Positions 2,102 through 22,033 are shown, numbered from the stretch's first letter. The stretch: 64,000 nt of DNA from Novosphingobium sp. (GCA_036384395.1 DASVMK010000098.1:93-64092), one strand, 5' to 3'. Made by a program: numbers and translations. Notes: generated by a model from the sequence alone, not told the origin.

Positions 2102-2161
2102 ATCGATGCCGCATGCGCGCAGGCAGCGTGCACGAATCCTAGGCACCGGCAAGGAAGGGTG

Positions 2162-4358: not shown

Positions 4359-5792
4359 ATGACCGCCGAGCGCGCGATCATCGACATCGGTTCGAACACC
4401 GTGCGCCTGGTGGTGTACGGCGGGCCGGCGCGCGCGCCGACGGTGCTGCTGAACGAGAAGGTCACCGCCAAGCTCGGCAAGGGCCTCGCCGAGAACGGCC
4501 GGCTGTCGGACAAGGCGATGAAAGTCGCGCTGGCCGCGCTCGGGCGCTATGCCCTGCTGCTGCGACTGCGCGGGGTGGAGAGGGTCGAGACCGTCGCCAC
4601 CGCCGCCGCGCGCGATGCGACCAATGGCGAGGATTTCCTGGCGCGCGTCCGCGCGCTGGGGCTGGCGCCGCGGCTGCTGTCGGGCGAGCAGGAGGCGGTC
4701 ACCAGCGCGATGGGCGTGATCGGCGCGCTGCCGGGCGCCAAGGGCGTCGTTGCCGATCTCGGCGGCGGCAGCCTGGAGCTGATCCATGTCGAGGGCGGGC
4801 GAAGCTGGCACGGCGCCAGCCTGCCGTTCGGCACGCTGCGCCTGCCGGGCTTGCGCGCGCAAGGGCCTGTCCGTTTCTCGCGCGGCATCGTCAAGGCGCT
4901 CGACGCGGCCGAATGGCACTGCGCGCCGGGCGAGGCGTTGTACCTCGTCGGCGGCTCGCACCGCGCGCTGGCGCGGGTGGCGATGCACGCGGCGGGCTGG
5001 CCGATCGACGATCCGCATGCCTTCGAACTGTCGCCGCAGGCGGCGCTCAAGACCTGCCGGCTGGTGCTGGCGGACGCGCTGCCGCCGGCGATTCCCGGCC
5101 TCTCGGCCTCACGCCGGGCGAGCCTGCCCGCCGCCGCCGCGCTGCTGGCGGTCCTGGTGCGCGAGCTCAAGCCGGCGCGGCTGGTGTTCTCCGCTTGGGG
5201 TCTGCGCGAGGGGCTGATGTACGCGGCGCTGCCGGCGGCGGAGCAGGCGCTCGATCCGCTGCTGGCGGGCGCCTTCGCCTTCGGCCAGGCGCTCGGCTGC
5301 GCGCCCGCCGACGCCGCGGCGATCGCCGGCTGGACCGCGCCGGTGGCGGCCGGGGACGAAACCTTGCGCCTCGCCGCGACGCTGCTGGCGCTGGTCTCGC
5401 AGCGGATCGAGCCCAACTTGCGCGCCGGGCACATCATGGACGGGGCGCTGCGCAAGCGCTGGATCGGCATCGACGCCCCCGGCCGCGCGCAGATTGCCGC
5501 CTGCGCGCTCGCCAACGCCGGGCGCGCGGCGCCGGCCGAGGCGCTGGGGCGCCTTGCCCCGGCCGACCGGTTGCGCGAGGCGGCCGGATGGGGCCTCGCC
5601 ATGCGCCTGTGCCGGCGCTTCAGCGGCCTTTCCGCCAAGGTGCTGGCGGGAAGCGCGCTGAGCGTGGAGGACGGCGCGCTCACGCTGACGATGCAGGAGG
5701 CCTACGCGCCGCTTTACACCGAGATGGTCGAGAAGGACCTCAAGGCGCTGGCCGAGCACCTGGGCCTGCGCGCGGCGGTGCGGAAGGCGTAG
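4359..5792 (+). CDS. ppx: Ppx/GppA family exopolyphosphatase
   Basis: IIDIGSNTVRL, SGEQEA, DLGGGSLEL, SAWGLREG; directly downstream of ppk. Confidence 0.92.
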   Translation: MTAERAIIDIGSNTVRLVVYGGPARAPTVLLNEKVTAKLGKGLAENGRLSDKAMKVALAALGRYALLLRLRGVERVETVATAAARDATNGEDFLARVRALGLAPRLLSGEQEAVTSAMGVIGALPGAKGVVADLGGGSLELIHVEGGRSWHGASLPFGTLRLPGLRAQGPVRFSRGIVKALDAAEWHCAPGEALYLVGGSHRALARVAMHAAGWPIDDPHAFELSPQAALKTCRLVLADALPPAIPGLSASRRASLPAAAALLAVLVRELKPARLVFSAWGLREGLMYAALPAAEQALDPLLAGAFAFGQALGCAPADAAAIAGWTAPVAAGDETLRLAATLLALVSQRIEPNLRAGHIMDGALRKRWIGIDAPGRAQIAACALANAGRAAPAEALGRLAPADRLREAAGWGLAMRLCRRFSGLSAKVLAGSALSVEDGALTLTMQEAYAPLYTEMVEKDLKALAEHLGLRAAVRKA

Positions 5793-5938: not shown

Positions 5939-6934
5939 TCAGCCCACCAGCTCCCGCGCCACGGCGATCTCGGCGATGGTCCGCTGGCCCTCGTGGCGCT
6001 TGAGCTGCACGATCACGTCGATCAGCGAGGCGGCGTAGTCGATCGTTTCGTGGCGGGTGAGGCCGATCTGCGCCTGCATCGCCATCAGGCCGATCTGCTC
6101 CAATGCGCCGCGCGGGGAATTGGCGTGGACGGTGGAGAACGAGCCGGGATGGCCGGTGTTGATCGCGCGCAGGAACGAGACCGTCTCGCGTCCGCGCAAT
6201 TCGCCCAGCACGATGCGGTCGGGGCGCAGGCGCAGCGCCGCCTGGACGAGATCGTCGGGCGTCACTCGCGCTTCGCCGAGCTCCCCCTTGACCGCGACGA
6301 GGCCCAGCGCATTCGCCGTCGGCAGCTTGAGCTCGGGCGTGTCCTCGACCAGGATCACGCGCTCGCCGGGCGGAATCGCGCCGAGCATGGCGTTGAGGAA
6401 CGTGGTCTTGCCGGTCGAGGTGCCGCCGGCCACCAGGATCGTCTTCCGCCGCGCGATCGCCGCGCGCAAGTAGTCGAGCGGGCGGGCCAGCGGATCGGGC
6501 ATCGCCGCTTCGGCCTGGGGCCGGATCGGGCCGTTGTTCCAGGCATCGAGCGGCAGGTCGATCAGGCGGTGGCGGCGGATCGCCAGCGCCCAGTTGCGCC
6601 GCGTCGCCGGCGGGCCGACGAGCTGGATGCGCGCGCCGTCAGGTAGTGTCGCGGCCAGCAGCGGATGCTCGCGGTTGATGCCCTGGTGGCTCTGGCGCGC
6701 GACTTGCTCGGCCAGTCGTTGCAGCAGGGTATCGTCGATCTCGGGCAGCGCGACGCGCTGCATGGCGGGCGTGCCGGCCTCCTCGATCCACAGCTCGCCG
6801 GGGCGGTTGACGAGGATCTCGGTGACGCTTTCGCGCGCCAGGAACGGGCGGAACGGCGCCAGGTAGGCGTCGAGATAGACGCTGCGCGGCGCGGTGTCCG
6901 CCGCCGCCGGGAGCGCGCGCAGCTCGGCGCTCAC
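5939..6934 (-). CDS. virB11: P-type T4SS ATPase VirB11
   Basis: EILVNRPGE, Walker A GGTSTGKTT, VEDTPEL, LRLRPDRIVLGELRG, NTGHPGSFSTVHANS; GTG start overlaps the virB10 stop (GTGA). The longer tracked ORF is an upstream extension. Confidence 0.95.
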   Translation of the reverse strand: MSAELRALPAAADTAPRSVYLDAYLAPFRPFLARESVTEILVNRPGELWIEEAGTPAMQRVALPEIDDTLLQRLAEQVARQSHQGINREHPLLAATLPDGARIQLVGPPATRRNWALAIRRHRLIDLPLDAWNNGPIRPQAEAAMPDPLARPLDYLRAAIARRKTILVAGGTSTGKTTFLNAMLGAIPPGERVILVEDTPELKLPTANALGLVAVKGELGEARVTPDDLVQAALRLRPDRIVLGELRGRETVSFLRAINTGHPGSFSTVHANSPRGALEQIGLMAMQAQIGLTRHETIDYAASLIDVIVQLKRHEGQRTIAEIAVARELVG

Positions 6935-8034
6935 TCGCGTTCGACCTTCGAGAAGTCGAGATCGCGCGCGGTGAAGACGCGGATCGGCTCGCCCTGGCGG
7001 ACGCGGATCGTCGGGCCGATCTGTCCGCCCTGGCCGACCGCCGCCGCGGCCGCCGACTGGCCGCCGCCGCCGACGATCACATTGGCGCCGTTGCCGATCA
7101 GCGAGGGGATGCCGCCGATCACCGAGAGCAGCATCGACGAGCCGAAGCGCTCGAAGAAATGGCTGTCGACCTTGCCGGCGAGGCCGGTCTCGCCGGAGAA
7201 GGCGACGGCGGGGGAGGCGATGGCGACCGAGACGCCGTCGGGGCGGATCAGCCGCGTCCAGATCACGTAGGCGCGCTTCTGGCCCGAGGTCATGCCGCTC
7301 TTGTACTGGCCGATGAGCCGCGACGAGCGGGGGACGAGCACGCGGGTGCCGTCGAACGAGCGCACGTCGGCCGAGACGATGGCGCGGACGTAGCCGGGCA
7401 CGTCGGTGTCGATCGCGGTTTCCAGCACCGCCGGGATCAGCGTGCCCTGCGTCACCGTGGTGCGCGGATCGATCGCGCTGGCCGCACTGGCCGCGCCGCC
7501 GCCCACCCCGCCGAGCCGCGCGGCGAAATCGTCGTTGCCGTTGCCGGAGCCGCCCGGTGCCGCCGCCGGTCCGCCCAGCGCGATGGCGGGGGCGGACGCG
7601 GGAAGCGCGCTGGCGTCGAACACGATGGTCGGGCTGCTGTGTGGGTTGGCCCGCACGCCTGGCGCCATTTGCGGCGGCGCGGCGAGGACCGCCTGCTGTT
7701 GCGGCGCTGCGGGCGCGGTTCCGGGCGCGGGGGTGATCGCCTGTGGCGGCACCGCGGGCGGCAGCGCGACGGGCGGGGCGCCCACTTGCGTCGGCAAGGG
7801 CCCGCGCTTCTGCACGGTGCGGGCGTTGTCCATGCTCCACAGCGTCACCGCGCCGAGCAGGCCGACCACCGCGACCCCGGCGGCCAGGCCGAAGGCGTCG
7901 GAGCGCGGCTTGCGCGCCGCGACTTGCGGCAGGACGTTGCGCGTGGCGAGATCGATGATCTCCGCGCCTTGCGCATCGCGCGGATCGGCGTCGTTGGCGG
8001 CGAAGCGTTCGGACAGCTTGGTCGTGGGGCGCAT
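6931..8034 (-). CDS. virB10: TrbI/VirB10 T4SS core-complex protein
   Basis: N-terminal TM helix, Pro/Ala linker, QGTLIPAVLETAIDTDVPG, VPRSSRLIGQY, G..G.VDSHFFERFG, PTIRVRQGEPIRVFTARDLDF. Confidence 0.95.
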   Translation of the reverse strand: MRPTTKLSERFAANDADPRDAQGAEIIDLATRNVLPQVAARKPRSDAFGLAAGVAVVGLLGAVTLWSMDNARTVQKRGPLPTQVGAPPVALPPAVPPQAITPAPGTAPAAPQQQAVLAAPPQMAPGVRANPHSSPTIVFDASALPASAPAIALGGPAAAPGGSGNGNDDFAARLGGVGGGAASAASAIDPRTTVTQGTLIPAVLETAIDTDVPGYVRAIVSADVRSFDGTRVLVPRSSRLIGQYKSGMTSGQKRAYVIWTRLIRPDGVSVAIASPAVAFSGETGLAGKVDSHFFERFGSSMLLSVIGGIPSLIGNGANVIVGGGGQSAAAAAVGQGGQIGPTIRVRQGEPIRVFTARDLDFSKVERE

Positions 8035-8038
8035 GGGA

Positions 8039-8842
8039 TCAGTGGCCTTGGGCGGGGAGGATGAGCGGCGGGGCGGCGGTGTCGGTGGCGGCGGCCAGGC
8101 CCGGCGAAGCGGCCGGCGCGACCGGTTTGGGCGCCGCGCCGCGGTTCTCCAGCATGGCCATCGCCTTGCCCAGCCGCAGCACGATCAGCGCGGGCACGCC
8201 GTCCACCACGATCACGTCGTCGCGCACCGCGTAGTTCACCGGGCCTTCGACGCCCGCTTCGTTCTGCACCAGGATCGCCGGTACCGGCTGGCCGGCGGGC
8301 CACGACAGGAAGGTGGATTCGCCGTCGTCATAGACGCGCTGCGGCAGCAGCGTCGGCTTGCCCTTGGGGGCCCAGGCGAAGTTGAGCTGCGCGGGATCGA
8401 CCGGCGGCTTGGCCAGCGCCTGCGCCTCGGCGCTGCTCAACGTGGGCTGCGGGGCCGGCTTGGGCTCGGCCGGATAGGTGAAGCGCAGCACGTAGATCGG
8501 CCGCGCGGCGGGCGAGGCGGCGAGGTCGAACACATAGCTGCGCTTGTCGGTCACCACCGTCATGTTGGTGCGCGCGCTGGCGGTGAGCGGTTTCACGAAC
8601 AGCATGTTGGCGCGCTTGTTGGGCGTCACCTGCCACAAGTTCGAATCGCCGATGGCGACGTTCTCGATGTGCTCCTCGTCGGCGAAGGCGATCGCCGCCT
8701 GGACGCCGGTGCGCCCTTCGAGGCGGACGACCTGGTTGGGGTCGTAGTGCCGGGTGGCGAGGCGCGGGTCGGCGGTCTGGGCATGCGCCGGCACCGCGAT
8801 CGTGACGAGGGGGGCTAGCGCGAGAAGCAGCGGGCGGATCAT
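8039..8842 (-). CDS. virB9: TrbG/VirB9 T4SS outer-membrane core protein
   Basis: Signal peptide, DPRL..Y.P.QV, NMLFVKP, TNMTVVTDKRSYVFDL, VYDDGESTF; ATG overlaps the virB6 stop. Confidence 0.93.
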   Translation of the reverse strand: MIRPLLLALAPLVTIAVPAHAQTADPRLATRHYDPNQVVRLEGRTGVQAAIAFADEEHIENVAIGDSNLWQVTPNKRANMLFVKPLTASARTNMTVVTDKRSYVFDLAASPAARPIYVLRFTYPAEPKPAPQPTLSSAEAQALAKPPVDPAQLNFAWAPKGKPTLLPQRVYDDGESTFLSWPAGQPVPAILVQNEAGVEGPVNYAVRDDVIVVDGVPALIVLRLGKAMAMLENRGAAPKPVAPAASPGLAAATDTAAPPLILPAQGH

Positions 8843-10038
8843 CGGGACATCTCTTTCAGCGAAGCGGGCGCGCGCGCGGCGAAGCGGCTGCCGATCCCGC
8901 GCGCGCGGGCGCGGGGCAGCGGCGGCAGGCCGGGCTGCGGCGCGAGCGCGGCGGCCTGGGTAACGGTGGTGCGGATCGTGCTGGTCTGCGCCGAGCCGCC
9001 GGTGGGGGCCTGCGCCTCGGCGGCGGCGGCGATCACCGGCGCCAGCGCCGCGCCGCGCGCCAGCATCGGCGTCGGCTGCGCGGCCAGCGGCGCGAGGACC
9101 GGGATGGCGGCGGCACCGTTCGCCGACGAACCGCCCCTGCCGCTCTCGGAGGGCGCGGCGAGGCCGAACACCGTCCAGGCCGACACCATCGTGCCCGCGA
9201 CCTTCATCACCATGCTCATCAGCGCCGCGTGGACCGCCGCGATCACGAACAGCGCCATCGCCGCGCGCGGGTCGATCCCCTCGGTGCCGCGCAAGTCGGC
9301 GATCACCGGCACCGCGAGCTCGAGCGTCAGCGAACCGCCGGCGACGACGAACAGCGGCGCGATCGCGGTCATGACGAGGCCGCGCAGCCAGCCCGCCGCC
9401 AGCCCGCGCGTGCCCGAGAACAGCGCCAGCACGACGAAGACCGGCCCCAGCGCGAGCAGCACGGCCAGTGCGATCCGCGCGGTCACCAGCACGCCGACGG
9501 TGCCGAGCAGCAGCAGCAGCGCGCCGAGCCACATCAGCCCGGTGGGCGAGAACGCGCCTCCGGCTTGAGCGGCATTGGCGGCCTGCGCCGCGCCCGCCGC
9601 CGGAGCGGCGCCGTTGCTGGCGGTCTGGGCGATCGCCGCGAAGATCATGTCGAGCCGGCCGGCGAAGATCTGCGTCGCCGAGCCCTTGATGCCGGTGAGG
9701 ATCCCGGCGAGCTGGTCGGGCGCGCCGATGGCGAGGTTCCAGACCACGCCCTGCCAGGCGACCCAGCTCGTCGCGAAGGTCAGCACGAGGCCGAGCGTCA
9801 GCGCGCGCGGGGTCAGCGCCGCCACGCCGAGCCGGCTGCGCCCGGTGAGCAGCGCCAGCGCGAAGACCGCGATGTAGAGCGTCAGCAGGATCGTCAGCGC
9901 CGGCAGGAGCGCGCCTTGCGCGCCGAACAGCCGGCCGAACGCCGCGCCCGCCAGCTCGTTCGACAGGCAATCGACCGCGCGCAGCGCCGGGGCGGCGCCC
10001 AGCGAGGCTTCGGCGGTGAGCTGGGTGCAGGCGGCCAT
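8839..10038 (-). CDS. virB6: TrbL/VirB6 polytopic inner-membrane T4SS protein
   Basis: Several TM segments, RIALAVLLALGPVFVVLALFSGTRGLAAGWL signature, Ala/Pro-rich C-tail; sits between virB4 and virB9. Confidence 0.88.
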   Translation of the reverse strand: MAACTQLTAEASLGAAPALRAVDCLSNELAGAAFGRLFGAQGALLPALTILLTLYIAVFALALLTGRSRLGVAALTPRALTLGLVLTFATSWVAWQGVVWNLAIGAPDQLAGILTGIKGSATQIFAGRLDMIFAAIAQTASNGAAPAAGAAQAANAAQAGGAFSPTGLMWLGALLLLLGTVGVLVTARIALAVLLALGPVFVVLALFSGTRGLAAGWLRGLVMTAIAPLFVVAGGSLTLELAVPVIADLRGTEGIDPRAAMALFVIAAVHAALMSMVMKVAGTMVSAWTVFGLAAPSESGRGGSSANGAAAIPVLAPLAAQPTPMLARGAALAPVIAAAAEAQAPTGGSAQTSTIRTTVTQAAALAPQPGLPPLPRARARGIGSRFAARAPASLKEMSR

Positions 10039-10039
10039 G

Positions 10040-12469
10040 CTACTCGGCCGCCTCGATCCACAGCGCGTCCTCGTCGTCCGCTTCGCCCGGCCAGGCCTCG
10101 CCGGTCAGCAGCGGATACCAGGCGGCGGGCCGGTCGCCGACCTGGGCGCGCAAGGCGTCGAGCCGGCGCACGGTGCTTTCGCGGCCCGAGAGCACGGTCA
10201 GCACCTCGGGCATGCCCGAGAGGTCGAGCCGCACGACGACCGAGGCGTCCGACTGGCGGACCAGGAAACAGCGGCTCTGCGCCGGCAGCGTGCGGATCAG
10301 GTCCAGCTCGTGGCTCGTCAGGCCGAAGCCCTCGCAATAGTCTTCGGGCCGGGCGCGGGCGTTGGGCATGAACACCATCGTCGCGGTCTGCTCGACCAGC
10401 GCCGCCGAAATCCGGCTTTCGAGCGCGTCGCGCGCCGACTGGGTGGCGAAACCGACCAGCGCGTTGCGCTTGCGCAGCGTCTTGAGCCAATCGCGGATGC
10501 GCGCGGCGAAGACCGGATCGTCGAGCGCCTTCCAGCCCTCGTCGATCAGGATCATCGCCGGCGTGCCGTCGAGCCGCTCGTCGATGCGGTGGAAAAGGTA
10601 CATCATCACCGGCGTGCGCAGCCGCGGGGTTTCGAGCAGCGCGGTCATGTCGAAGCCGATGACGCGGGCGGAGAGGTCGAGGCGATCCTCCGCGTTGTCG
10701 AACAGCCAGCCGTGCTCGCCCGCCCCGATCCAGGCGTCGAGCCGGGCGGCGAGGTCGCCGGGTTCGGGGCGGCGGCTGCCCGCCAGCAACTCGCGGAAAT
10801 GGGTGAGGCGGCGCAGCGCCGGATCGTTGGCGTAGGCGGCGTCGACCGCGCCCGCCAGTGTCGCGTGCTCCTCCGGCCCGTCGGCGGCGAGCAGCACCGC
10901 CAGCCAGTCGCGCAGGAAGGCGCGGTTGGCGGGGGTGTCGGGGAGCGCCAGCGGGTTGAAGCCGGTCGGATGCCCGGCGGCGATACGGCTGTAATCGCCG
11001 CCGATGCCGCGCACGAAGACCTCGGCACCGCGATCCTTGTCGAACAATACGGTGCGGGGGCCGAACTTCTGCGCCTGCGCCGCGAGGAAGTTCATCACCA
11101 CCGTCTTGCCCGAGCCGGAGGGGCCGATGACGGTGAAGTTGCCGAGGTCACCCTGATGGAAATTGAAGAAGAACGGCGTCGCGCTGGTGGTGGTCAGCAG
11201 CGTCGCCGCCTCGCCCCAGTGGTTGCCCTGGGCGCTGCCCATCGCGAAGCCGTGGAGGCTGGCGAAGCAGGCCATGTTGGCGCTGGAGACCAGCGCGCGG
11301 CGAACGACGAACGCCTCGTTGCCGGGGAACTGACCCCAGAAGCCGGGCTCGAGGTTGACGTCCTCGCGCACCGCGATCGCGCCCATGTCGGCGAGCGCGG
11401 CGGCGCAGGCGGCGGCGGTCTCGTCGAGCGCGGGCAGGCTGGGCGCGCGGACCAGGACGGAGAGGTGGTGATCGCCGAAAGCGGTGGCGCCGGTGCCGAG
11501 CGCGTCGCGCGCGGCGGTCATCTCGCGGCGTTCGGCCAGCGCCTCCTCGTCGGCGGATTTCAAACGGCGGATGGCGAGGTCGATGCGCTCGCGGGCGATC
11601 TGGCGGTCGGTCGGCGCGTAGCTGGCGGTCAGCACCAGCTCGCACGGCAGCCGCAGCAGCGCGTCGGCGAGGCCGGGCGCGGTGGTGTCGGGGTAGTCCT
11701 TGAGGCTGATCAGCGCGGCGAAATCGCTGCTCCCCGCCGCCACTCCTCCTGGGCCGCGCGCTTCCATCGCGTCGAGGCCGAACGACAGCCGCTTGTAGGG
11801 CAGCATGCGACCCACGTCGGTGCCTTCGGCCGGGCGGCGCACGGGGCGCATCTCGCCGTTGTAGAGCGCGCTGAGCAGTTCGAGCACTTCCGAGCAGGTG
11901 CCGCCCGCGCCCTCGTAGTCGCCCAGCATCCGCGCGCCATAGGCGCCGAGCGAGGCGGTGAGCGCGCCCGCCGCCGCCTTGAGCGCGCGCACGTCCGCGG
12001 GATCGGCTGCGATTGGCGCGGCGCCTTTGCGCTTCATCATCCGGCCGAGCCTGTCGGCCCAGCCGGCGCGGCCGCGCGCGGGGCGGCGCACCAGCGTGAC
12101 GAACTGGTCGTTGACGTAAAGCGCGCGGGTGGCGACCGCCGCCTTCCAGCGCGCGTCGATATGCGCGGCCAGCGGATCCTCGAACGTGCCGTCGAGCTCG
12201 ACATGGACGCGGCGGCGGATGACGTGGTGGTAGAGCACGAAACGGGCGTCGAGCGCGCTGCGCAGCAGCACCTCGCGCGTCGCGGCGTGGGCGTTGAGTT
12301 CGTCGGTGTCGGCGGTCTCGAACGAGAGGCCGGGCACCATCAGCGCGCACAGCACCGATCCGTCGCGCAGCAGCACGACGTTCTCGTCGACGAGCGCGCG
12401 GTAGGGCAGGCGGTCGCCGGCCGAGGCTTCCTTGTTCGCCCAAGCGGCCGCTCCGGATAACAGGCCCAT
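10040..12469 (-). CDS. virB4: VirB4 family T4SS ATPase
   Basis: Walker A GPSGSGKT, LFDKDRG, GFNPL, Walker B ILIDEGW, WLKTLRKRN, FATQS; start MGLLSGAAAW with AGGAG RBS. Confidence 0.96.
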   Translation of the reverse strand: MGLLSGAAAWANKEASAGDRLPYRALVDENVVLLRDGSVLCALMVPGLSFETADTDELNAHAATREVLLRSALDARFVLYHHVIRRRVHVELDGTFEDPLAAHIDARWKAAVATRALYVNDQFVTLVRRPARGRAGWADRLGRMMKRKGAAPIAADPADVRALKAAAGALTASLGAYGARMLGDYEGAGGTCSEVLELLSALYNGEMRPVRRPAEGTDVGRMLPYKRLSFGLDAMEARGPGGVAAGSSDFAALISLKDYPDTTAPGLADALLRLPCELVLTASYAPTDRQIARERIDLAIRRLKSADEEALAERREMTAARDALGTGATAFGDHHLSVLVRAPSLPALDETAAACAAALADMGAIAVREDVNLEPGFWGQFPGNEAFVVRRALVSSANMACFASLHGFAMGSAQGNHWGEAATLLTTTSATPFFFNFHQGDLGNFTVIGPSGSGKTVVMNFLAAQAQKFGPRTVLFDKDRGAEVFVRGIGGDYSRIAAGHPTGFNPLALPDTPANRAFLRDWLAVLLAADGPEEHATLAGAVDAAYANDPALRRLTHFRELLAGSRRPEPGDLAARLDAWIGAGEHGWLFDNAEDRLDLSARVIGFDMTALLETPRLRTPVMMYLFHRIDERLDGTPAMILIDEGWKALDDPVFAARIRDWLKTLRKRNALVGFATQSARDALESRISAALVEQTATMVFMPNARARPEDYCEGFGLTSHELDLIRTLPAQSRCFLVRQSDASVVVRLDLSGMPEVLTVLSGRESTVRRLDALRAQVGDRPAAWYPLLTGEAWPGEADDEDALWIEAAE

Positions 12470-12479
12470 CGTTCGCTCC

Positions 12480-12761
12480 TTACGGCGCATAGCTGTTGCA
12501 GCCCCAGCGCTGGAAGTTCCGCACGCGCGGACAGCGGGAGACTTTGGTGATCCACAAATCGAACACGCGCGGTTCACGCAGGCAGGCGAGATAGCCGATC
12601 GCGTGGATCAGCAGCGCCACCGGCAGCGCCAGGAAGCTCTTGGTGATGAGGAACGCCTCGGTGGTCACCGCCGCGTTGATCACGAAGAAGCTGTAGGTGA
12701 CGCCGGCGAACATCTGCGGCCGTGTCAGCGCCCGGTGCACCGGATAGCGCGTAAGCTCCAT
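12480..12761 (-). CDS. virB3: VirB3 T4SS protein
   Basis: 93 aa, ALTRPQMFAGV motif, two TM helices, directly upstream of virB4. Confidence 0.92.
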   Translation of the reverse strand: MELTRYPVHRALTRPQMFAGVTYSFFVINAAVTTEAFLITKSFLALPVALLIHAIGYLACLREPRVFDLWITKVSRCPRVRNFQRWGCNSYAP

Positions 12762-13078
12762 CAGCCGACCGCCGCGGCCGACTGGATGCCGGTGACGATC
12801 GCGCCCGCGCCGAACAGCACGAAGCAGCCGATGATCACCGTCGCGCCGAAGCGCCAGTTCATCCGCCCGGTCAGCATCATGAAGCCCACCGCGGCGACCG
12901 CCATCACCGCGACCGCGGTGGCGACGTTGCCGAGCAGCGTGCCCTGCAGCCAGCCGAGCGCGGCGACGATCGGGCCCGAGCCTTGCGGATCGGCGGCCGC
13001 GCCCGCGACTTGCGCGTAGGCCGCCTGCGGCGCTGCCAGCAACGTGGCGGGGAAAAACTTCTTGAGCATCGGGGTCAT
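12761..13078 (-). CDS. virB2: TrbC/VirB2 pilin
   Basis: Signal/leader followed by two hydrophobic helices (GNVATAVAVMAVAAVGFMMLTG; IIGCFVLFGA); stop overlaps the virB3 start. Confidence 0.9.
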   Translation of the reverse strand: MTPMLKKFFPATLLAAPQAAYAQVAGAAADPQGSGPIVAALGWLQGTLLGNVATAVAVMAVAAVGFMMLTGRMNWRFGATVIIGCFVLFGAGAIVTGIQSAAAVG

Positions 13079-13716
13079 CTCCGAACGGGTGCGGACAGGA
13101 TGGGTGCGGTCAGCCGCGCCATGATCGACGCGACGTAGTTCTGGGTTTCGCGGATGCGCGGGATGCCGCCCGCCGCCTGCACCCGGCCGGGGCCGGCGTT
13201 GTAGGCGGCCAGCGCCTTCTCGATGTCGCCGCCGAACGCATCGAGCTGGGCGCGCAAGTAGCGCGCGCCGCCTTCGAGGTTGGCGTGCGGATCGTCGGGG
13301 TTCACGCCCATCTGGCGGGCGGTGCCGGGCATCAGCTGGGCAAGCCCGCGCGCGCCCGCCGGCGAGACCGCGCCGCTGCGCCAGCGGCTCTCCTGCCAGA
13401 CGAGGGCTTCGATCAAGGCGGGCGACAAGTCATACTTGGCGGCGAGCTCGGCCACGCGCGCGCGGTAGGCGTCGGGGACGGCGGTGGGGGCGACGTCGGT
13501 AACCGGGGTGCCCTGGGGGACGGCCGCCAGGGGCGCGTCGAGGTCGAAGGTGGTCGCCTCGGTCGCGGCTGCCGGTCCGCCCGCGACCCATGCCGCACCG
13601 CGCGTGCCGATCTCGAGCACGTCGGCATGGGCAACGGTGGGGACGAGCGGCGACAGGGCCAACAAGGCCGCCGCGACGTCAGAAACCACCGAATCAACTG
13701 CCCACAACCGACTCAT
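13075..13716 (-). CDS. virB1: VirB1-like soluble lytic transglycosylase with signal peptide
   Basis: SLT motifs QESRW (catalytic Glu), SPAGARGLAQLMPGTA, ALAAYNAGPG, ETQNYV; AGGAGG RBS; first gene of the virB operon. Confidence 0.88.
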   Translation of the reverse strand: MSRLWAVDSVVSDVAAALLALSPLVPTVAHADVLEIGTRGAAWVAGGPAAATEATTFDLDAPLAAVPQGTPVTDVAPTAVPDAYRARVAELAAKYDLSPALIEALVWQESRWRSGAVSPAGARGLAQLMPGTARQMGVNPDDPHANLEGGARYLRAQLDAFGGDIEKALAAYNAGPGRVQAAGGIPRIRETQNYVASIMARLTAPILSAPVRR

Positions 13717-13750
13717 CGAGCCCTCCTGCCGGGGGCCTTGCGCTTTTTAC

Positions 13751-13768
13751 GTGACGGCTCTGTGACAG
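13751..13768 (-). promoter_or_regulatory. Pho box upstream of virB1: CTGTCAC-AGAG-CCGTCAC
   Basis: Reverse complement of GTGACGGCTCTGTGACAG; two near-consensus PhoB heptamers at 11-bp spacing ending 35 bp before the virB1 ATG. Confidence 0.8.
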
Positions 13769-13903
13769 TTACGATGCGTCGCCGCCGAATGGGATTTCGG
13801 CTTTATTCTCTATATGGGCCGGGAAAAAGCAACGGCGCGACCGCGCGATTTCCCCAGCCTTTTCGCGACTATTTGCGACCGAAAGGACCCGTGCTCGCGG
13901 GGA

Positions 13904-14299: not shown

Positions 14300-14371
14300 C
14301 GTTCTCCTGAATTCTGTTCTGACCCGGTCAGGCTATGACTCGCCTCCTGTTCGCGCAATGAAACTGTAACA

Positions 14372-14499
14372 TTGTCATAAAAATGAAACGTTGGCCTTCC
14401 GGCGGAGTCGGGTCCGTCAGCCAAGGTGTTGTCATAATTGTCATATTACAACCACAGAACACTATTCGAACTGTCATAGAACCGAAAACAAACTGTCAC
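14372..14499 (+). promoter_or_regulatory. Phased array of Pho-box half-sites upstream of the lipoprotein/TBDR operon
   Basis: TTGTCAT 14372, TTGTCAT 14438, CTGTCAT 14471, CTGTCAC 14493: offsets 66, 33 and 22 bp, all multiples of 11; an extra TTGTCAT at 14429. Confidence 0.75.
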
Positions 14500-14571
14500 C
14501 CCCTGCTCCTATTTGGCGAGTCGCGAGGGCGGTCCTGCCGTCGACGAAACTCACCATGAGGGGTACCTACC

Positions 14572-16167: not shown

Positions 16168-16185
16168 CTCTACTTTGCGTACTCC

Positions 16186-16212
16186 GGGGGAGCGGCCGTG
16201 CGCCCCTCCCCC
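16186..16212 (+). other. GGGGGAG...CTCCCCC stem-loop between the lipoprotein and TBDR genes
   Basis: 7-bp stem beginning 19 nt after the stop codon; the same stem recurs at 18967-18987. Confidence 0.5.
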
Positions 16213-16239
16213 CCTCTTCGTTCTCCTGGGGGACCACCA

Positions 16240-18948
16240 ATGACCCGTTCGCGCCTTTTCCTCGCTCTGTTGCTGGCTGGCACCGGGCTGACCAGCCACG
16301 CCGCGATGGCGCAAACCGAGCCGCAGCCGACGCCGCCCAGCGGTGCCGAAACGGCCACACCCGCACCGGCGGACCCGGCGCCCGCCGAGGAAGACGTGGA
16401 GGTGTCCGCTCCCGGCGCGGAGGGCGCCGAGATCGTCGTCACCGGCCGCTTCATTCCCGAGCCCGTCCGCAACACCGCGCAAGTGGTGAACGTGCTGTCG
16501 TCCGCCGAAATCGCGCGCACCGGCGACGGCGACATTTCGGGCGCGCTGCAGCGCGTGACCGGCCTGTCGGTCAACACCAATGGCTTCGTCTACGTTCGCG
16601 GTCTCGGTGATCGCTATTCGCTGGCGCTGCTCAACGGCCTGGCGCTCCCTTCGCCCGAACCGCTGCGGCGTGTGGTGCCGCTCGACGTGTTTCCGACCAG
16701 CATCGTCTCCAGCGCGCTCGTTCAGAAAAGCTATTCGGTCAACTACCCTGGCGAGTACGGCGGCGGCGTCATCAACCTCACCACCGCCTCGCTGCCCGAG
16801 GAGAACTACCTGACGCTCGGCACCGGCATCAGCATCGACACCGAGACCACCGCCCAGCTCGGCTACACCTATTACGGCAGCAAGCGCGACATCGTCGGCT
16901 ACGACGACGGCACCCGTCGCTTGCCCACCGCGCTGCGCAACAACAACGGCCAACTTGTCAGCGCCAACGTGCTGGAGAACGAGGATACGCTGATCGTCCA
17001 GCGCAACCATGACATCCCGGCCAACTTCAGCGCCTCGGCAAGCGCCGGCTACGCCACCGATTTCGGCGAGAGCCGCTTCGGCGTGCTCGCCAGCATGGGC
17101 TACTCGAACGGCTGGCGCACCCGCGGCGCCACGCAGCAGACCGCGCTGGCGGGCTCGCTGGTCAACAGCAGCTATGGCGTGCGGACCGAGAACCGCATCC
17201 AGGCCAACGCGCTGGTCAGCCTCGGCCTCGACCTGCCGCAGGGCCACAAACTGCGCTTCACCAACGTCTACATCCACGACACTTCGAAGGTCGCGCGCGT
17301 GCGCGGATCCTACGAGAACATTCAGACCCGCTTCGAGGACCTGGACGCCGGCCGCCTGACGGGCCCTTACGATTCGCTCAATTACGAGACGAACTACGTC
17401 CAGCGCCAGCTCATCACCTCGCAGCTCGTCGGCGAGTTCAAGTTCGGCGACTTCGACCTCGACTTGCGCGGCAGCTATTCGAACTCGCAACGCAAGTCGC
17501 CCTACGAGCGGACGACGCAGTACCGCTACGTCCCCGCGACCGAAGGCTATGCGATCCGCTTCGGCGCGCCGACGGGCGTTGTGTTCAGCGACCTGAACGA
17601 GGACGTGTGGGCCGGTGGCGCCGACCTCGCCTATGAATTCACGGGGCCGTTCACCGCCAAGCTCTCGGCGGGTTACGCCTACAGCGACACGAGCCGCCGT
17701 TTCGAAAGCCTGAACTTCGTCTACGACGACGGTGGCGCGCCGGTGGTGACCACGCCCAACGCCTACCTGCCGATCTACCAGCTTCTTTCGCCGGACTTCG
17801 TCGATTACGAAAACATCACGCTGCGCCAGGCCAACCGCGCGTTCGGCCAGGCGCTCTATCGCGGCGACCTGACCGTGCACGGCGGCTATGTGCGCGCCGA
17901 CATGGGCCTGGCCGAAGGGCTCAGGCTCGAGGCGGGCGTACGCTACGAGACCGCCAAGCAGACGCTGACGCTGCCCGACATCTACGGCAACAATCCGAAC
18001 GGCGCCGGCACGGCCGCAGTGATCGAGAAGAAGAACGACTACTGGTTGCCCGCCGCGACGATGACCTGGAACTTCGCCGAAGACTGGCAATTGCGCGTCC
18101 ACGGCTCCAAGACGATCGCCCGGCCGCAGTTCCGCGAGCTCGGCACGATCCCGGTGCTCGATCTGGAATCCGATCGCCTGCTGAGCGGCAACCCGTTCCT
18201 GACCGACAGCCAGCTCTACAACGCCGAGGTCCGCACCGAGTTCTATCCGGCGCGCGGAGAGCGGATCTCGCTGGCCGGCTTCTACAAGCGGATCGACAAG
18301 CCGATCGAATCGATCGCCACCGTCGACGCCTCGGGCCAGCTCCAGGTCAGCAACGCCAACGCGCCCAAGGCTGACCTTTACGGCGTCGAGGCGGAAGTGG
18401 TGAAGTACTTCGACCTCGCCGGCCTTGGCGGCGACTATTTCGCCACCCGCCGTCTGATGCTCTCGGCCAACTACACCTATAGCCAGTCGAAGCTGAAGGT
18501 GGCGGCCGGCGACACCACCGTGCTGTTCCCCGGCAATATCGACAGCCCGCTGATCGCCCCCGCAGGCCAGGTGTTCACAAACGGCAGCCCGCTGACCGGA
18601 CAGTCAAAGCACCTCGCCAACATCCAGTTCGGCATCGAGGATACCGAGACCTTGTCGCAGATCACCCTGCTGCTGACTTACGCCAGCAAGCGCGTGAGCT
18701 CGCGCGGGGCCAACAGCGGCGGCGTGGTCGATCCCGACATCGTCGAGAGGCCCGGCGTCAACCTCGACATCGTCGCGCGGCAGGCCATCGAGGTGGCCGG
18801 CATGCCGCCGCTCGAATTCAAAGTGGAGGGCCGCAACCTCCTCGGAACCGATTTCAGCGAGACGCAGCGCTATCCGGCCTACACGGTGCAGAACAACACT
18901 TACGACGTTGGCACCACCATCGCGGCCAGCATCTCGGCCAAGTTCTAA
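16240..18948 (+). CDS. TonB-dependent outer-membrane receptor
   Basis: Signal peptide, TonB box EIVVTG, plug motifs ALQRVTGLSV and VYVRGLGDRY...LNG, RVVPLDVFP, C-terminal ...SISAKF. Confidence 0.95.
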   Translation: MTRSRLFLALLLAGTGLTSHAAMAQTEPQPTPPSGAETATPAPADPAPAEEDVEVSAPGAEGAEIVVTGRFIPEPVRNTAQVVNVLSSAEIARTGDGDISGALQRVTGLSVNTNGFVYVRGLGDRYSLALLNGLALPSPEPLRRVVPLDVFPTSIVSSALVQKSYSVNYPGEYGGGVINLTTASLPEENYLTLGTGISIDTETTAQLGYTYYGSKRDIVGYDDGTRRLPTALRNNNGQLVSANVLENEDTLIVQRNHDIPANFSASASAGYATDFGESRFGVLASMGYSNGWRTRGATQQTALAGSLVNSSYGVRTENRIQANALVSLGLDLPQGHKLRFTNVYIHDTSKVARVRGSYENIQTRFEDLDAGRLTGPYDSLNYETNYVQRQLITSQLVGEFKFGDFDLDLRGSYSNSQRKSPYERTTQYRYVPATEGYAIRFGAPTGVVFSDLNEDVWAGGADLAYEFTGPFTAKLSAGYAYSDTSRRFESLNFVYDDGGAPVVTTPNAYLPIYQLLSPDFVDYENITLRQANRAFGQALYRGDLTVHGGYVRADMGLAEGLRLEAGVRYETAKQTLTLPDIYGNNPNGAGTAAVIEKKNDYWLPAATMTWNFAEDWQLRVHGSKTIARPQFRELGTIPVLDLESDRLLSGNPFLTDSQLYNAEVRTEFYPARGERISLAGFYKRIDKPIESIATVDASGQLQVSNANAPKADLYGVEAEVVKYFDLAGLGGDYFATRRLMLSANYTYSQSKLKVAAGDTTVLFPGNIDSPLIAPAGQVFTNGSPLTGQSKHLANIQFGIEDTETLSQITLLLTYASKRVSSRGANSGGVVDPDIVERPGVNLDIVARQAIEVAGMPPLEFKVEGRNLLGTDFSETQRYPAYTVQNNTYDVGTTIAASISAKF

Positions 18949-19183: not shown

Positions 19184-19858
19184 TCAAGGCTGGTCGAGCA
19201 CGTATCCCAGCGAACGCACCGTGCGCAGCGGATCGCCGGCGCCGGCGGTGCGCAGCGCGCGGCGCAGGCGGCCGATCCAGACATCGACCGTGCGTTCGTC
19301 GACCGGCGGGTCCTGCTTGCCGAGCGCGGCGATGAGCTGGCCGCGGGTGAACACCCGGCCGGGATGCTCGACCAGGTAGCGCAGCAGGCGGAACTCGTTG
19401 GGCATCAGCGGGATCGCCTTGCCGCGCCAGCGCGCCTGGAAGGCGGCGAGATCGATGCTGAGCTCGCCGAGCGCGAGGTTGCGCGCGGGCGCGCCGTCGT
19501 GGTCGTGCGGCCGGGCCGAGAGCACCCGGTCGAGCAGCGCGGTGCGGGTGGCGGGTCCGACCATGTAGTCGTCCGCCCCGGCGCGCAGCGCACGGCGGCG
19601 GGCGTCCTGGTCGTCCTCCTCCAGCATCATCGTGATGTGCGCCTGCGCGGTCAGCGGATCGCAGCGCAGCCGGCGGCAGATCTCGAGCCCTGAGATCTCG
19701 GGCAGCACCCAGTCGACGAAGGCCCAGAGCGTGCCTTCGAGCAGCGGCAGCTCGCTGGGCCGCGCCCAGCGATGGAACAGCACTTCGAGCTCGCCGTGGA
19801 CGAACGGCGCGGTTCCCCCCTCGAGCTCGCCGGTCAGCAGTATGTCGACGCGGTGCAT
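19184..19858 (-). CDS. PhoB-like OmpR-family regulator with atypical (pseudo-)receiver domain
   Basis: FVDWVLPEISGLEICRRLR and GADDY resemble PhoB; DNA-binding domain ERTVDVWIGRLRRAL...LRTVRSLGY; GGAG RBS before ATG 19858. Confidence 0.85.
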   Translation of the reverse strand: MHRVDILLTGELEGGTAPFVHGELEVLFHRWARPSELPLLEGTLWAFVDWVLPEISGLEICRRLRCDPLTAQAHITMMLEEDDQDARRRALRAGADDYMVGPATRTALLDRVLSARPHDHDGAPARNLALGELSIDLAAFQARWRGKAIPLMPNEFRLLRYLVEHPGRVFTRGQLIAALGKQDPPVDERTVDVWIGRLRRALRTAGAGDPLRTVRSLGYVLDQP

Positions 19859-19901: not shown

Positions 19902-19941
19902 GTGACGCGCAAATGACGGTTCGGCGACAGTTCGGTGAAAT
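19902..19941 (-). promoter_or_regulatory. Four-unit Pho-box array upstream of the phoB-like gene
   Basis: Minus strand ATTTCAC-CGAA-CTGTCGC-CGAA-CCGTCAT-TTGC-GCGTCAC with exact 11-bp period. Confidence 0.8.
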
Positions 19942-19953
19942 CGCGGCGCTCGC

Positions 19954-19982
19954 CTGTCACCGAACTGACCCCGATCCGTCAC
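19954..19982 (+). promoter_or_regulatory. Three-unit Pho-box array upstream of plcP-agt
   Basis: CTGTCAC-CGAA-CTGACCC-CGAT-CCGTCAC with exact 11-bp period. Confidence 0.8.
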
Positions 19983-20033
19983 CACCCCGCAACCGCGCCG
20001 GATTAAAAGGAGGCGAAACCGGCAAAGGTGACA

Positions 20034-20933
20034 ATGATGATCTTCGATGACGCGGACCTGCTGCCCCGCAAGCCGGGTGGCGTTCCTCCCCTGGGCAAGA
20101 TCCCCGAATGGCTCGACCTGCCAGACCCCAAGGGCTTCCGTCCCAAGCGCAAGTACCGCACGGTGTGGATTTCCGACGTCCACCTCGGCACGCGCGGCTG
20201 CAACGCGGCGCTGCTCGTGGATTTCCTGCGCTCGATCGAGTGCCAGACGCTCTACCTGGTCGGCGACATCGTCGACGGCTGGCGGCTGCGCAAAGGCTGG
20301 TACTGGCCCGACGCCCACAACGAGGTGGTCCGCCGCCTGCTCAAGATGGCGCATCGCGGCACCCGCGTGGTCTTCGTCGCGGGCAATCACGACGAGATGC
20401 TGCGCGACTATGCCGGGCTGACCTTCGGCGGGGTCGAGCTGGTGCTCGAAGCGGTGCACGAGACCGCCGACGGTCGCCGCCTGCTGGTGACTCACGGCGA
20501 CAGCTTCGACGGCGTGGTGCTCTACGCCAAGTGGCTCGCGTTCCTGGGCGACAAGGCCTACGGGCTGCTGCTGCGCGCCAACATCCTGTTCAACGCCGTG
20601 CGACGGCGGCTGAAGATGCCGTACTGGTCGCTCTCCGCGCACCTCAAGCGCAAGGTCAAGAACGCCGTCCAGTACGTCTGCAGCTTCGAGGAGGCGGTGG
20701 CGCGCGAGGCGCTCGAGCGCGGCTTCGACGGCATCGTCTGCGGCCACATCCACTGCGCCGAGATTCGCGCGATCGGCGACATCACCTATTACAACGACGG
20801 CGACTGGGTCGAAAGCTGCACCGCGCTGGCCGAAGAGGCCGATGGCGCGATGCACATCGTCGACTGGGCGCAGGAAGTGGCGGCCGAGGCGGCGGCGAAC
20901 GCGCCCACCCAGCCGCTGGAGACGGTGGCATGA
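20034..20933 (+). CDS. plcP: PlcP-type phospholipase C (LpxH-like metallophosphoesterase)
   Basis: SDVHLG, GDIVD, GNHD (His, not the Arg of LpxH GNRD), THGD, CGHIH, YYNDGDWVESCT; coupled to a GT4 gene; Pho box upstream. An alternative GTG start lies at 20028. Confidence 0.85.
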   Translation: MMIFDDADLLPRKPGGVPPLGKIPEWLDLPDPKGFRPKRKYRTVWISDVHLGTRGCNAALLVDFLRSIECQTLYLVGDIVDGWRLRKGWYWPDAHNEVVRRLLKMAHRGTRVVFVAGNHDEMLRDYAGLTFGGVELVLEAVHETADGRRLLVTHGDSFDGVVLYAKWLAFLGDKAYGLLLRANILFNAVRRRLKMPYWSLSAHLKRKVKNAVQYVCSFEEAVAREALERGFDGIVCGHIHCAEIRAIGDITYYNDGDWVESCTALAEEADGAMHIVDWAQEVAAEAAANAPTQPLETVA

Positions 20934-22033
20934 GCGCGCCTATTCGCATCGCTATCGCCACCGACGCCTGGTTTCCGCAGGTCAACGGCGTCGTCCGCAC
21001 GCTGGCGGCCACCGTCGCGGTGCTCGACCGGCAGGGCTACGAGGTCGAACTGATCACGCCCGAGCGCTTCCTCACCGTGCCGATGCCCGGCTATTCGGCG
21101 ATCCGCCTGGCGCTGGCCCCGCGCTTCGCCGCGCGGCGGATGCTCGACCACTATCGCCCCGACATCGTCCACATCGCCACCGAAGGGCCGATCGGCTGGA
21201 GCGCGCGCGGTTGGTGCCTGGCGCGCGGGGTGCCGTTCACCACCGCGTTCCACACACGCTTTCCCGACTATGCGGCGGTCCGCACCGGCATCAGTGCCGA
21301 GCGCTTCTGGCCGATCATGCGCCGCTTCCATGCCCCCAGCCGCGCGGTGCTCGTCGCTACGCGCAGTCTGGAGCTGGAACTGCGCGGGCGCGGCTTCGAG
21401 CGAATCCGGCCCTGGAGCCGGGGCATCGACAACTGGGTCTTCCGTGCCGACGGCGACGCCCATCCCGATCTCGTCCATCTGCCGCGCCCGTTGCTGCTCA
21501 ACGTCGGCCGCGTCGCGCCCGAGAAGAACCTCGAGGCGTTCTTGCAGGCCGAGACGCCCGGCACCAAGGTCGTCGTCGGCGAAGGCCCTGCGCTTGGCGA
21601 CCTGCGCGCGCGCTATCCCGATGTGATGTTCATGGGCGCGCTGGCGGGCGAGGAGCTCGCCGCCGCCTATCGCAGCGCCGACTGTTTCGTGTTCCCCAGC
21701 CTTACCGACACCTTCGGGCTGGTGGTGATCGAGGCACTGTCGTGCGGCGTGCCGGTGGCCGCCTATCCGGTGCCCGGTCCGATCGACATCCTGGGTCCCG
21801 ATGGCTGCGGCGTCGATGGCGAGCAGGCCCGGGCGGCGGGCGCGGTCGATGAAGACCTTGCCGCCGCGATCGCCCGCGCGCTGAGGCTGCGCCGCGCCGA
21901 CGCCATCGCGCTGGCGCGCAACTACACCTGGGAACGCGCGACCGACCACTTCCTCGCGGCGATCCGCTCGGCGCTGGATGGAGCGGCGGAGCCGGTGGCG
22001 GCGCGCTCGGAGGCCGAGCTGGAGGCGGCCTGA
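20930..22033 (+). CDS. GT4 glycosyltransferase, Agt-like glycolipid (glucosyl/glucuronosyl-DAG) synthase
   Basis: RIAIATDAWFPQVNGVVRTL, VHIATEGPIG, VGRVAPEKN, FVFPSLTDTFGLVVIEALSCGVPV; ATGA overlap with plcP. Confidence 0.85.
   Translation: MSAPIRIAIATDAWFPQVNGVVRTLAATVAVLDRQGYEVELITPERFLTVPMPGYSAIRLALAPRFAARRMLDHYRPDIVHIATEGPIGWSARGWCLARGVPFTTAFHTRFPDYAAVRTGISAERFWPIMRRFHAPSRAVLVATRSLELELRGRGFERIRPWSRGIDNWVFRADGDAHPDLVHLPRPLLLNVGRVAPEKNLEAFLQAETPGTKVVVGEGPALGDLRARYPDVMFMGALAGEELAAAYRSADCFVFPSLTDTFGLVVIEALSCGVPVAAYPVPGPIDILGPDGCGVDGEQARAAGAVDEDLAAAIARALRLRRADAIALARNYTWERATDHFLAAIRSALDGAAEPVAARSEAELEAA

Follow-up and report, generated by a model that had tools for sequence, protein, structure and literature searches.

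The window analysed here is a stretch of 64,000 nucleotides from Novosphingobium sp. (GCA_036384395.1 DASVMK010000098.1:93-64092). It contains a type IV secretion system (T4SS) operon, directly preceded by a Pho box, the motif recognised by the phosphate-starvation regulator PhoB. Eight virB genes were identified with Pfam and NCBIfam models in one run on the minus strand, from 13716 to 5939, in the order virB1-2-3-4-6-9-10-11. Adjacent genes share 1-4 nt or leave gaps of 1, 4 and 10 nt between them, which fits one translationally coupled operon. A single tight operon of eight virB genes had been proposed in an earlier reading of the window made without database searches (the sequence-only reading), and both the Pfam assignments and the spacing of the genes agree with it. 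VirB4, VirB9, VirB10 and VirB11 were matched by P-type models of NCBIfam, and among solved structures TrwK and TrwI of plasmid R388 come closest (E=3e-130 for TrwK). The features of the operon and its surroundings are listed in Table 1.

Table 1. Positions of the virB operon, its promoter elements and the neighbouring features in the window.
Feature	Position	Strand	Remarks
Pho box CTGTCACAGAGCCGTCAC	13751..13768	-	CTGTCAC-AGAG-CCGTCAC, two 7-bp direct repeats, 11-bp period
Putative -10-like element GCGCAAGG	13736..13743	-	7 nt past the box; resembles the alphaproteobacterial GCtANAwC type
virB1 ribosome-binding site AGGAGG	13722..13727	-	GGAGG kept in the promoter logo
virB1, lytic transglycosylase with SLT domain	13075..13716	-	Pfam
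virB2, pilin (TrbC/VirB2)	12761..13078	-	Pfam; 74-97% identity across genera
virB3	12480..12761	-	Pfam, NCBIfam
virB4, ATPase	10040..12469	-	Pfam, NCBIfam; start M37 after AAGGAG, alternative start 12490
virB6	8839..10038	-	Pfam
virB9	8039..8842	-	Pfam; corrected start, ATG overlaps virB6 stop
virB10	6931..8034	-	Pfam, NCBIfam
virB11, ATPase, last gene of the operon	5939..6934	-	Corrected start, GTG overlaps virB10 stop; convergent with ppx
Weak terminator-like hairpin after the TPR gene	13832..13844	-	From the sequence
ppk-ppx, polyphosphate kinase and exopolyphosphatase	ppk 2159-4336, ppx 4359-5792	+	Convergent with virB11
Small exported TPR-like protein, 131 aa	13904..14299	-	In 48/61 loci
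AT-rich divergent intergenic region	14340..14510		Several phased TGTCAT/TGTAAC Pho-like repeats
ElpS-like surface lipoprotein, 531 aa	14572..16167	+	LAGC lipobox at residues 17-20, Pro-rich linker
TonB-dependent receptor, Cc0171-like	16198..18948	+	Partner of the lipoprotein
PhoB paralogue, degenerate receiver domain	19184..19858	-	In 46/61 loci
Cluster of 11-bp-phased Pho-like repeats	19902..19985		Both strands
plcP-like metallophosphoesterase and GT4 glycosyltransferase (plcP-agt)	20028..22033	+

The virB1 start codon (ATG at 13716) lies 34 nt past the end of the Pho box, which is followed by GTAAAAAGCGCAAGG, AGGAGG and the ATG itself. A near-perfect box with an 11-bp period, just upstream of a virB1 start supported by a ribosome-binding site, had been noted in the sequence-only reading, and every detail proved correct. 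The 18-mer was found only once in the 64-kb window, even when up to three mismatches were allowed (0.12 sites expected). In the source genome (2.85 Mb, 68% G+C, 273 contigs), the pattern YTGTCAY-N4-YYGTCAY gave four matches against about 0.25 expected from the base composition. With at most one mismatch, seven sites were obtained in this genome, located at pstS, two Porin_O_P genes, virB1, a NUDIX gene, a dnaQ-like gene and one orphan position. The pstS site is on the contig carrying phoR...pstS...phoB, which also encodes the canonical PhoB, and the two Porin_O_P genes encode phosphate-selective porins of the OprO/P family. Since pstS and the phosphate porins are preceded by this motif as well, it represents the Pho box of the source organism, and virB1 is among its very few carriers. 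The near-perfect boxes at C103:9663 (-) and C161:9823 (-) precede the genes for a NUDIX-domain protein and a DnaQ-like exonuclease; these may be additional members of the Pho regulon or chance sites.

No sigma-70 consensus promoter was found upstream of virB1. In PhoB-dependent promoters the box takes over from the -35 element about 10 bp ahead of a -10 element; the virB1 box may likewise replace a -35, and its position and orientation appear to be of the activating type. Across orthologous promoters a conserved GCGCAwt starts 7-8 nt after the box, and a similar GCGCAG also follows the box of pstS. The weak hairpin between the TPR gene and virB1 suggests that the virB genes have a promoter of their own.

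Conservation of the box was assessed in orthologous loci of the family Sphingomonadaceae, as the sequence-only reading had suggested for the region upstream of virB1. VirB4 orthologues form a class of 72-84% identity, found in single copy in roughly one in three genomes of the family (49 of the 151 sampled). The carriers are spread over many genera, among them Novosphingobium, Altererythrobacter, Tsuneonella, Croceibacterium, Aurantiacibacter and some Sphingobium. The footprint set consisted of 107 orthologous loci with a readable promoter, from Novosphingobium and genera of the Erythrobacter group and totalling 1.67 Mb. A box was counted when it had at most one mismatch and was located on the coding strand within -160 to +20 of the first virB gene. 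By this definition 87 of the 107 loci keep the box at the virB promoter, compared to about 0.16 expected from the background rate. Just 28 other matches were found on both strands of all the remaining sequence, several of them at the neighbouring TonB-dependent receptor (TBDR), plcP and ppk promoters. Most loci missed by the strict criterion show identifiable variants, for example TGTAAC or GGTCAG. In a logo of 98 non-identical promoters the two heptamers, GTCA(C) and TGTCA(T), were nearly invariant, the 4-nt spacer was variable and positions -30 to -13 were not conserved. The same logo showed the -10-like GCGCAwt, with a nearly invariant CA at +28/+29, followed by GGAGG. In about half of the Novosphingobium operons (L032-L111) virB1 is missing and virB2 stands directly behind the Pho box, so the lytic transglycosylase would be dispensable for this T4SS.

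Related T4SS operons served as internal controls. A paralogue class that encodes VirB8 and has VirB4 proteins of 50-57% identity (L112-L131) showed no box before virB in any of 20 loci at up to two mismatches, with few sites elsewhere in these loci. Its operons are chromosomal and ordered virB1-2-3-4-6-8-9-10-11, and in L112 virB11 is followed by a lipoprotein gene, not by virD4. A further VirB4 subclass of about 66% identity, without VirB8 and located elsewhere in the genome, had neither a box nor ElpS, TBDR or TPR neighbours, and for lack of both box and island context it was kept apart from the orthologues. This subclass comprises L154 (G149), L155 (G025) and L157 (G033); in G149 and G025 it occurs beside a type II secretion system (T2SS), and the VirB4 frame of G149 contains a TGA. 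Outside the family, one copy of the T4SS was found among 400 alphaproteobacterial genomes (G377); it carries no box, and a divergent gene for an OmpR-type regulator lies upstream. The T4SS copy of Phenylobacterium deserti has no box either, so that the horizontally transferred copies of the system lack it. Its presence in the orthologues and its absence from paralogues and outside copies mark the box as a specific, conserved trait of one chromosomal T4SS lineage. Membership of the operon in the Pho regulon, as first proposed from the window, is strongly supported by this phylogenetic footprint with its negative controls, and PhoB control of the virB operon is judged highly probable from the comparison of these sequences.

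The machine encoded by the operon is a reduced one. VirB8 (PF04335) gave no match in the source genome, with a model that detects VirB8 in 70 of the 151 family genomes. It is absent from about 29 carrier genomes, several of them closed, and in the other carriers VirB8 belongs to a separate T4SS locus. Neither virB7 nor virB8 is found between virB6 and virB9, where there is no room for them and where the 50-57% paralogue class has its VirB8 open reading frame (ORF). VirB5 and VirB7 are not encoded in the operon, as its eight ORFs belong to other families and no intergenic space is left; neither was searched for genome-wide. No VirD4 is encoded in the operon, and VirD4 is absent from many carrier genomes; without this coupling protein the usual uptake of substrates from the cytoplasm is not expected. 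Nearly all orthologues have undisrupted reading frames, and VirB2 keeps 74-97% identity between genera, which indicates that the reduced T4SS is maintained by selection.

The sole VirD4-like gene of the source genome is located on contig C262 (12.9 kb, with a lower G+C of 65%), part of which is covered by locus L001. This contig, a fragment of a mobile element, encodes a resolvase, ParA, the VirD4-like protein and a relaxase-like protein of 1200 amino acids, and has no mating-pair genes. It might be a mobilisable element that exploits the chromosomal T4SS.

The operon lies in a conserved island of genes with Pho-like repeats. The sequence-only reading had it flanked by ppk-ppx and genes led by Pho boxes, which holds: ppk-ppx are convergent with it, and phased Pho-like repeats occur at 14340-14510, ahead of the lipoprotein-receptor genes, and at 19902-19985, ahead of the plcP-like and GT4 genes. 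Conservation of the island was counted over 61 loci with enough flanking sequence (65 for ppk-ppx). The lipoprotein gene and the TBDR gene were present in 51 of the 61, and ppk-ppx were found downstream in 39 of the 65. The TPR-like protein was found only together with the Pho-type T4SS and is absent from T2SS loci, which makes it a candidate accessory factor, adaptor or substrate. Its model (predicted local distance difference test, pLDDT, 82.7) gave only generic TPR matches and, as a generic TPR-like fold without a specific match, speaks neither for nor against the protein as a substitute for VirB7 or VirB8. The plcP-like gene and the GT4 gene would presumably serve phosphate-sparing lipid remodelling. 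The PhoB paralogue matches the PhoB model only from residue 47 onwards and is preceded by four phased Pho-like repeats. Its recognition helix, RTVDVWIGRLRRAL, differs at two positions from that of the canonical PhoB on contig C192, RTVDVHIRRLRQAI, and the protein may modulate or compete at Pho boxes. An ORF of 1183 amino acids on the minus strand (14551-18102) was discarded, since codon-position GC and the lack of a Pfam match mark it as an artefact antisense to the TBDR and lipoprotein genes; its apparent conservation elsewhere in tblastn stems from the sense genes.

The lipoprotein and its receptor connect the locus to type II secretion. The phosphate-starvation lipoprotein ElpS (CC0170) of Caulobacter crescentus has a mass of about 50 kDa and LAGC at positions 17-20; its release from the cell surface needs the T2SS, and the genes are arranged elpS-cc0171-gsp (PMC2996285). 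The same gene order occurs in Sphingopyxis alaskensis, Hyphomonas and Xanthomonas (PMC2996285), and the T2SS of Caulobacter is a member of the PhoB regulon (PMC11208175). The locus described here shares with Caulobacter elpS-cc0171-gspC..N a LAGC lipoprotein of about 50 kDa, an adjoining TBDR and a secretion system under PhoB control, in our case predicted. It differs in having a reduced T4SS instead of the T2SS and an extra TPR protein, and in the lipoprotein-TBDR pair being divergent from the secretion operon, whereas in Caulobacter both run in the same direction. The ElpS-like lipoprotein was modelled confidently as a parallel beta-helix, with only a generic resemblance to pectate lyases and tailspikes, which suggests no catalytic assignment. 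All ElpS-like homologues bear the precomputed Pfam label PF28492, and a subset is about 900 amino acids long, some 400 more than the 531-residue protein.

For comparison, the gspD regions of 20 T2SS-bearing genomes of the family were inspected. Orthologues of the lipoprotein and the TBDR (37-50% identical over their full length) were present beside the gsp genes in nine of these loci, and in eight of the nine the pair is directly upstream of gspC-gspD in the same orientation, giving the order lipoprotein, TBDR, Pho-like repeats, gspC, gspD. Ahead of gspC, about 12 of the 20 loci show phased Pho-like repeats, mostly degenerate, at a fixed position. A perfect CTGTCATGCAGCTGTCAT is present in one locus, and the distribution of best matches before gspC was clearly better than in control windows. 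Pho control of the T2SS operons is thus supported as well, more weakly than that of virB. With the pair found beside both machines, the lipoprotein and its receptor accompany a Pho-marked T2SS in some lineages and a Pho-marked T4SS in others. In the source genome no GspD was detected above the cut-off, and the T4SS adjoins the lipoprotein-TBDR pair instead.

The distribution of the two systems was surveyed in the 151 family genomes, with the T2SS scored as GspD above the cut-off. The Pho-type T4SS is present in 49 genomes, 42 of which have an ElpS-like gene. A T2SS without this T4SS was found in 70 genomes (72 including those with both systems), with an ElpS-like gene in 53. Two of the 49 T4SS genomes also have a T2SS, leaving 47 with the T4SS only. 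Neither system was detected in 32 genomes, and none of these has an ElpS-like gene. The two systems are nearly exclusive (Fisher p=2.5e-15) and the ElpS-like gene depends on the presence of one of them (p=7e-18), in tests that ignore phylogeny. The state of the secretion system differs inside at least three genera (g1, g47 and g52), which makes several independent events likely. Of the 42 T4SS genomes with an ElpS-like gene, about 32 have it adjacent to virB. No ElpS-like gene occurs in genomes whose T4SSs all belong to the paralogous classes. In two loci, L013 (G059) and L014 (G047), the orthologous T4SS is present with a degenerate or lost Pho box, and these genomes are also without the ElpS-like gene, a pattern that hints at joint decay of the module.

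The sequences show the box and how it is conserved, which genes are present and in what order, and how the systems co-occur; from this we infer that PhoB binds and induces the operon, in which direction the machine transports and what it carries, as follows. Upon limitation of inorganic phosphate, phosphorylated PhoB would bind the two 7-bp repeats in place of a -35 element and recruit RNA polymerase to the weak -10, giving one coupled mRNA for VirB1-2-3-4-6-9-10-11. The product would be a reduced type IVA, envelope-spanning complex without a coupling protein, acting on substrates already exported by Sec. This T4SS would have taken over the role of the T2SS and move phosphate-scavenging proteins of the periplasm or surface across or off the outer membrane. 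As a stand-in for the T2SS within the ElpS module, it would probably serve to release or expose the ElpS-like lipoprotein or its processing factor. The cargo would then be this lipoprotein or a factor for its release, activation or processing, and possibly also the TPR protein and other phosphorus-scavenging proteins. Taken as a whole, a PhoB-induced, coupling-protein-independent exporter that replaced the T2SS is considered a rather probable explanation. The role in export as a replacement of the T2SS, taken by itself, has nearly even chances. The broader proposition, that a T4SS lacking VirB5, VirB7, VirB8 and VirD4 joined the PhoB regulon and, in a major Sphingomonadaceae clade, displaced the T2SS as outer-membrane exporter of the proteins secreted under phosphate starvation (the ElpS pathway), is put forward tentatively, at slightly less than even chances.

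Among characterised systems, Ptl of Bordetella, a type IVA exporter whose substrate is assembled in the periplasm, offers a functional precedent for such a machine. It shares the lack of VirD4 and VirB5 and the presence of VirB11, and by analogy with it a two-step export independent of a coupling protein may be envisaged here. Ptl retains homologues of VirB7 and VirB8, has no VirB1, is transcribed together with the genes of its substrate and is not known to be regulated by phosphate. With the Trw system of R388 and the VirB-D4 system of Agrobacterium (type IVA, mating-pair formation class T), the operon has homologues of VirB2, 3, 4, 6, 9, 10 and 11 in common. It differs from both by having no VirB5, VirB7, VirB8, VirD4, relaxase or origin of transfer (oriT) at the operon, by being chromosomal and vertically inherited, and by the Pho box ahead of it.

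The sequence-only reading had stated that T4SS are not normally linked to phosphate status, and this requires some qualification. In Agrobacterium the effect of low phosphate is reportedly indirect, through plasmid-borne virG and as part of a host-interaction regulon, whereas here the Pho box is located directly on the structural operon of a T4SS in free-living bacteria. Expression of the Agrobacterium vir genes is raised by low phosphate, according to a passage in PMC4018554 that cites Winans 1990. The same reading had expected similar clusters in other sphingomonads; indeed, a core, vertically inherited T4SS that co-evolves with Erythrobacter genomes and lies next to a TonB transporter has been noted (PMC4919336). 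No paper linking PhoB to a structural operon of a sphingomonad T4SS was found in the searchable literature, nor any that describes a Pho box directly on the structural operon of a T4SS, the loss of VirB8 or the exchange with the T2SS at the ElpS locus.

Several points weigh against the proposed explanation. We know of no T4SS that functions without VirB8, nor of one that exports hydrolases or lipoproteins. Seven T4SS genomes have no ElpS-like gene, and the exclusivity of the two systems may partly result from a few ancient events, which the Fisher tests do not take into account. The repeats before gspC are mostly degenerate, only two of the 20 T2SS loci having a site with at most one mismatch. 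The presumed homology of the lipoprotein to CC0170 is drawn from synteny, size and lipobox, not from direct alignment. The box could be occupied by the PhoB paralogue instead, as the recognition helices of the two are similar. Finally, the T2SS of Caulobacter is needed for the release of ElpS and not for its placement at the surface, so the cargo of the T4SS may be something else.

Three functions had been offered in the sequence-only reading, namely import of extracellular DNA as a phosphorus source, Ptl-like export of a periplasmic phosphorus-scavenging substrate, and contact with neighbouring cells. The exchange with the T2SS at the ElpS-TBDR locus favours export; DNA uptake and cell contact are less favoured. 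Uptake would consist of a ComB-like, PhoB-induced transfer of DNA into the periplasm, as a source of phosphorus or for transformation. DNA is rich in phosphorus, the operon contains neither VirD4 nor a relaxase, and a role in transformation has been guessed for sphingomonad T4SSs (PMC4919336). ComB of Helicobacter pylori is a precedent, being likewise chromosomal and non-conjugative and without VirD4 and VirB5. However, ComB includes VirB8 but not VirB11, the reverse of the situation here; it also includes VirB7, is without VirB1 and has no known tie to PhoB or to a locus resembling that of a T2SS. As the conserved island contains no nuclease or com gene, and uptake leaves the T2SS exchange and the strict dependence of the ElpS-like gene unexplained, this function is regarded as unlikely.

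A second possibility is that the operon produces a pilus only, a VirB2 filament by which phosphate-starved cells would attach to particles, to minerals or to one another or other cells, without transporting anything. VirB2 is the most conserved component, and in Agrobacterium pilus biogenesis is independent of VirD4, as given in textbooks, and attachment is promoted by low phosphate (PMC4018554). On the other hand, VirB5, the tip protein required for the T-pilus in model systems, is absent from the operon, and a filament alone does not account for the exclusivity with the T2SS or the link to ElpS, so that such a pilus is likewise thought improbable.

It is also conceivable that the box is not an activation site for PhoB, either because it is bound by the PhoB paralogue or another regulator of the OmpR family, or because PhoB acts on it as a repressor, in which case phosphate starvation would not induce the operon. 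The PhoB-like recognition helix of the paralogue (19184-19858) and its conservation within the island speak for such a reading. On the other side, pstS and the phosphate porins carry this motif too, the box is placed and oriented like an activating one and the canonical phoB is present, so this would be quite surprising. Least probable is a mating channel lent to a plasmid or integrative and conjugative element with its own relaxase and coupling protein: C262 does have VirD4-like and relaxase-like proteins without mating-pair genes, and the chromosomal VirB4 is the only one in the genome, yet many carriers have no VirD4 at all, so mating is not the selected, conserved function, and the Pho box would be unexplained.

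For most chromosomal T4SSs of free-living bacteria no function is known. In this lineage PhoB regulation, the neighbouring genes and the exchange with the T2SS point to one testable role, in phosphorus acquisition. If the proposed export function is correct, the family would provide a rare case in which a secretion nanomachine has given way, at one and the same locus, to a non-orthologous one. It would also provide a natural, working T4SS without VirB8, which would challenge the indispensability of this component and offer a minimal T4SS for structural work. The bacteria that carry the system are abundant in soil, fresh water and the sea.

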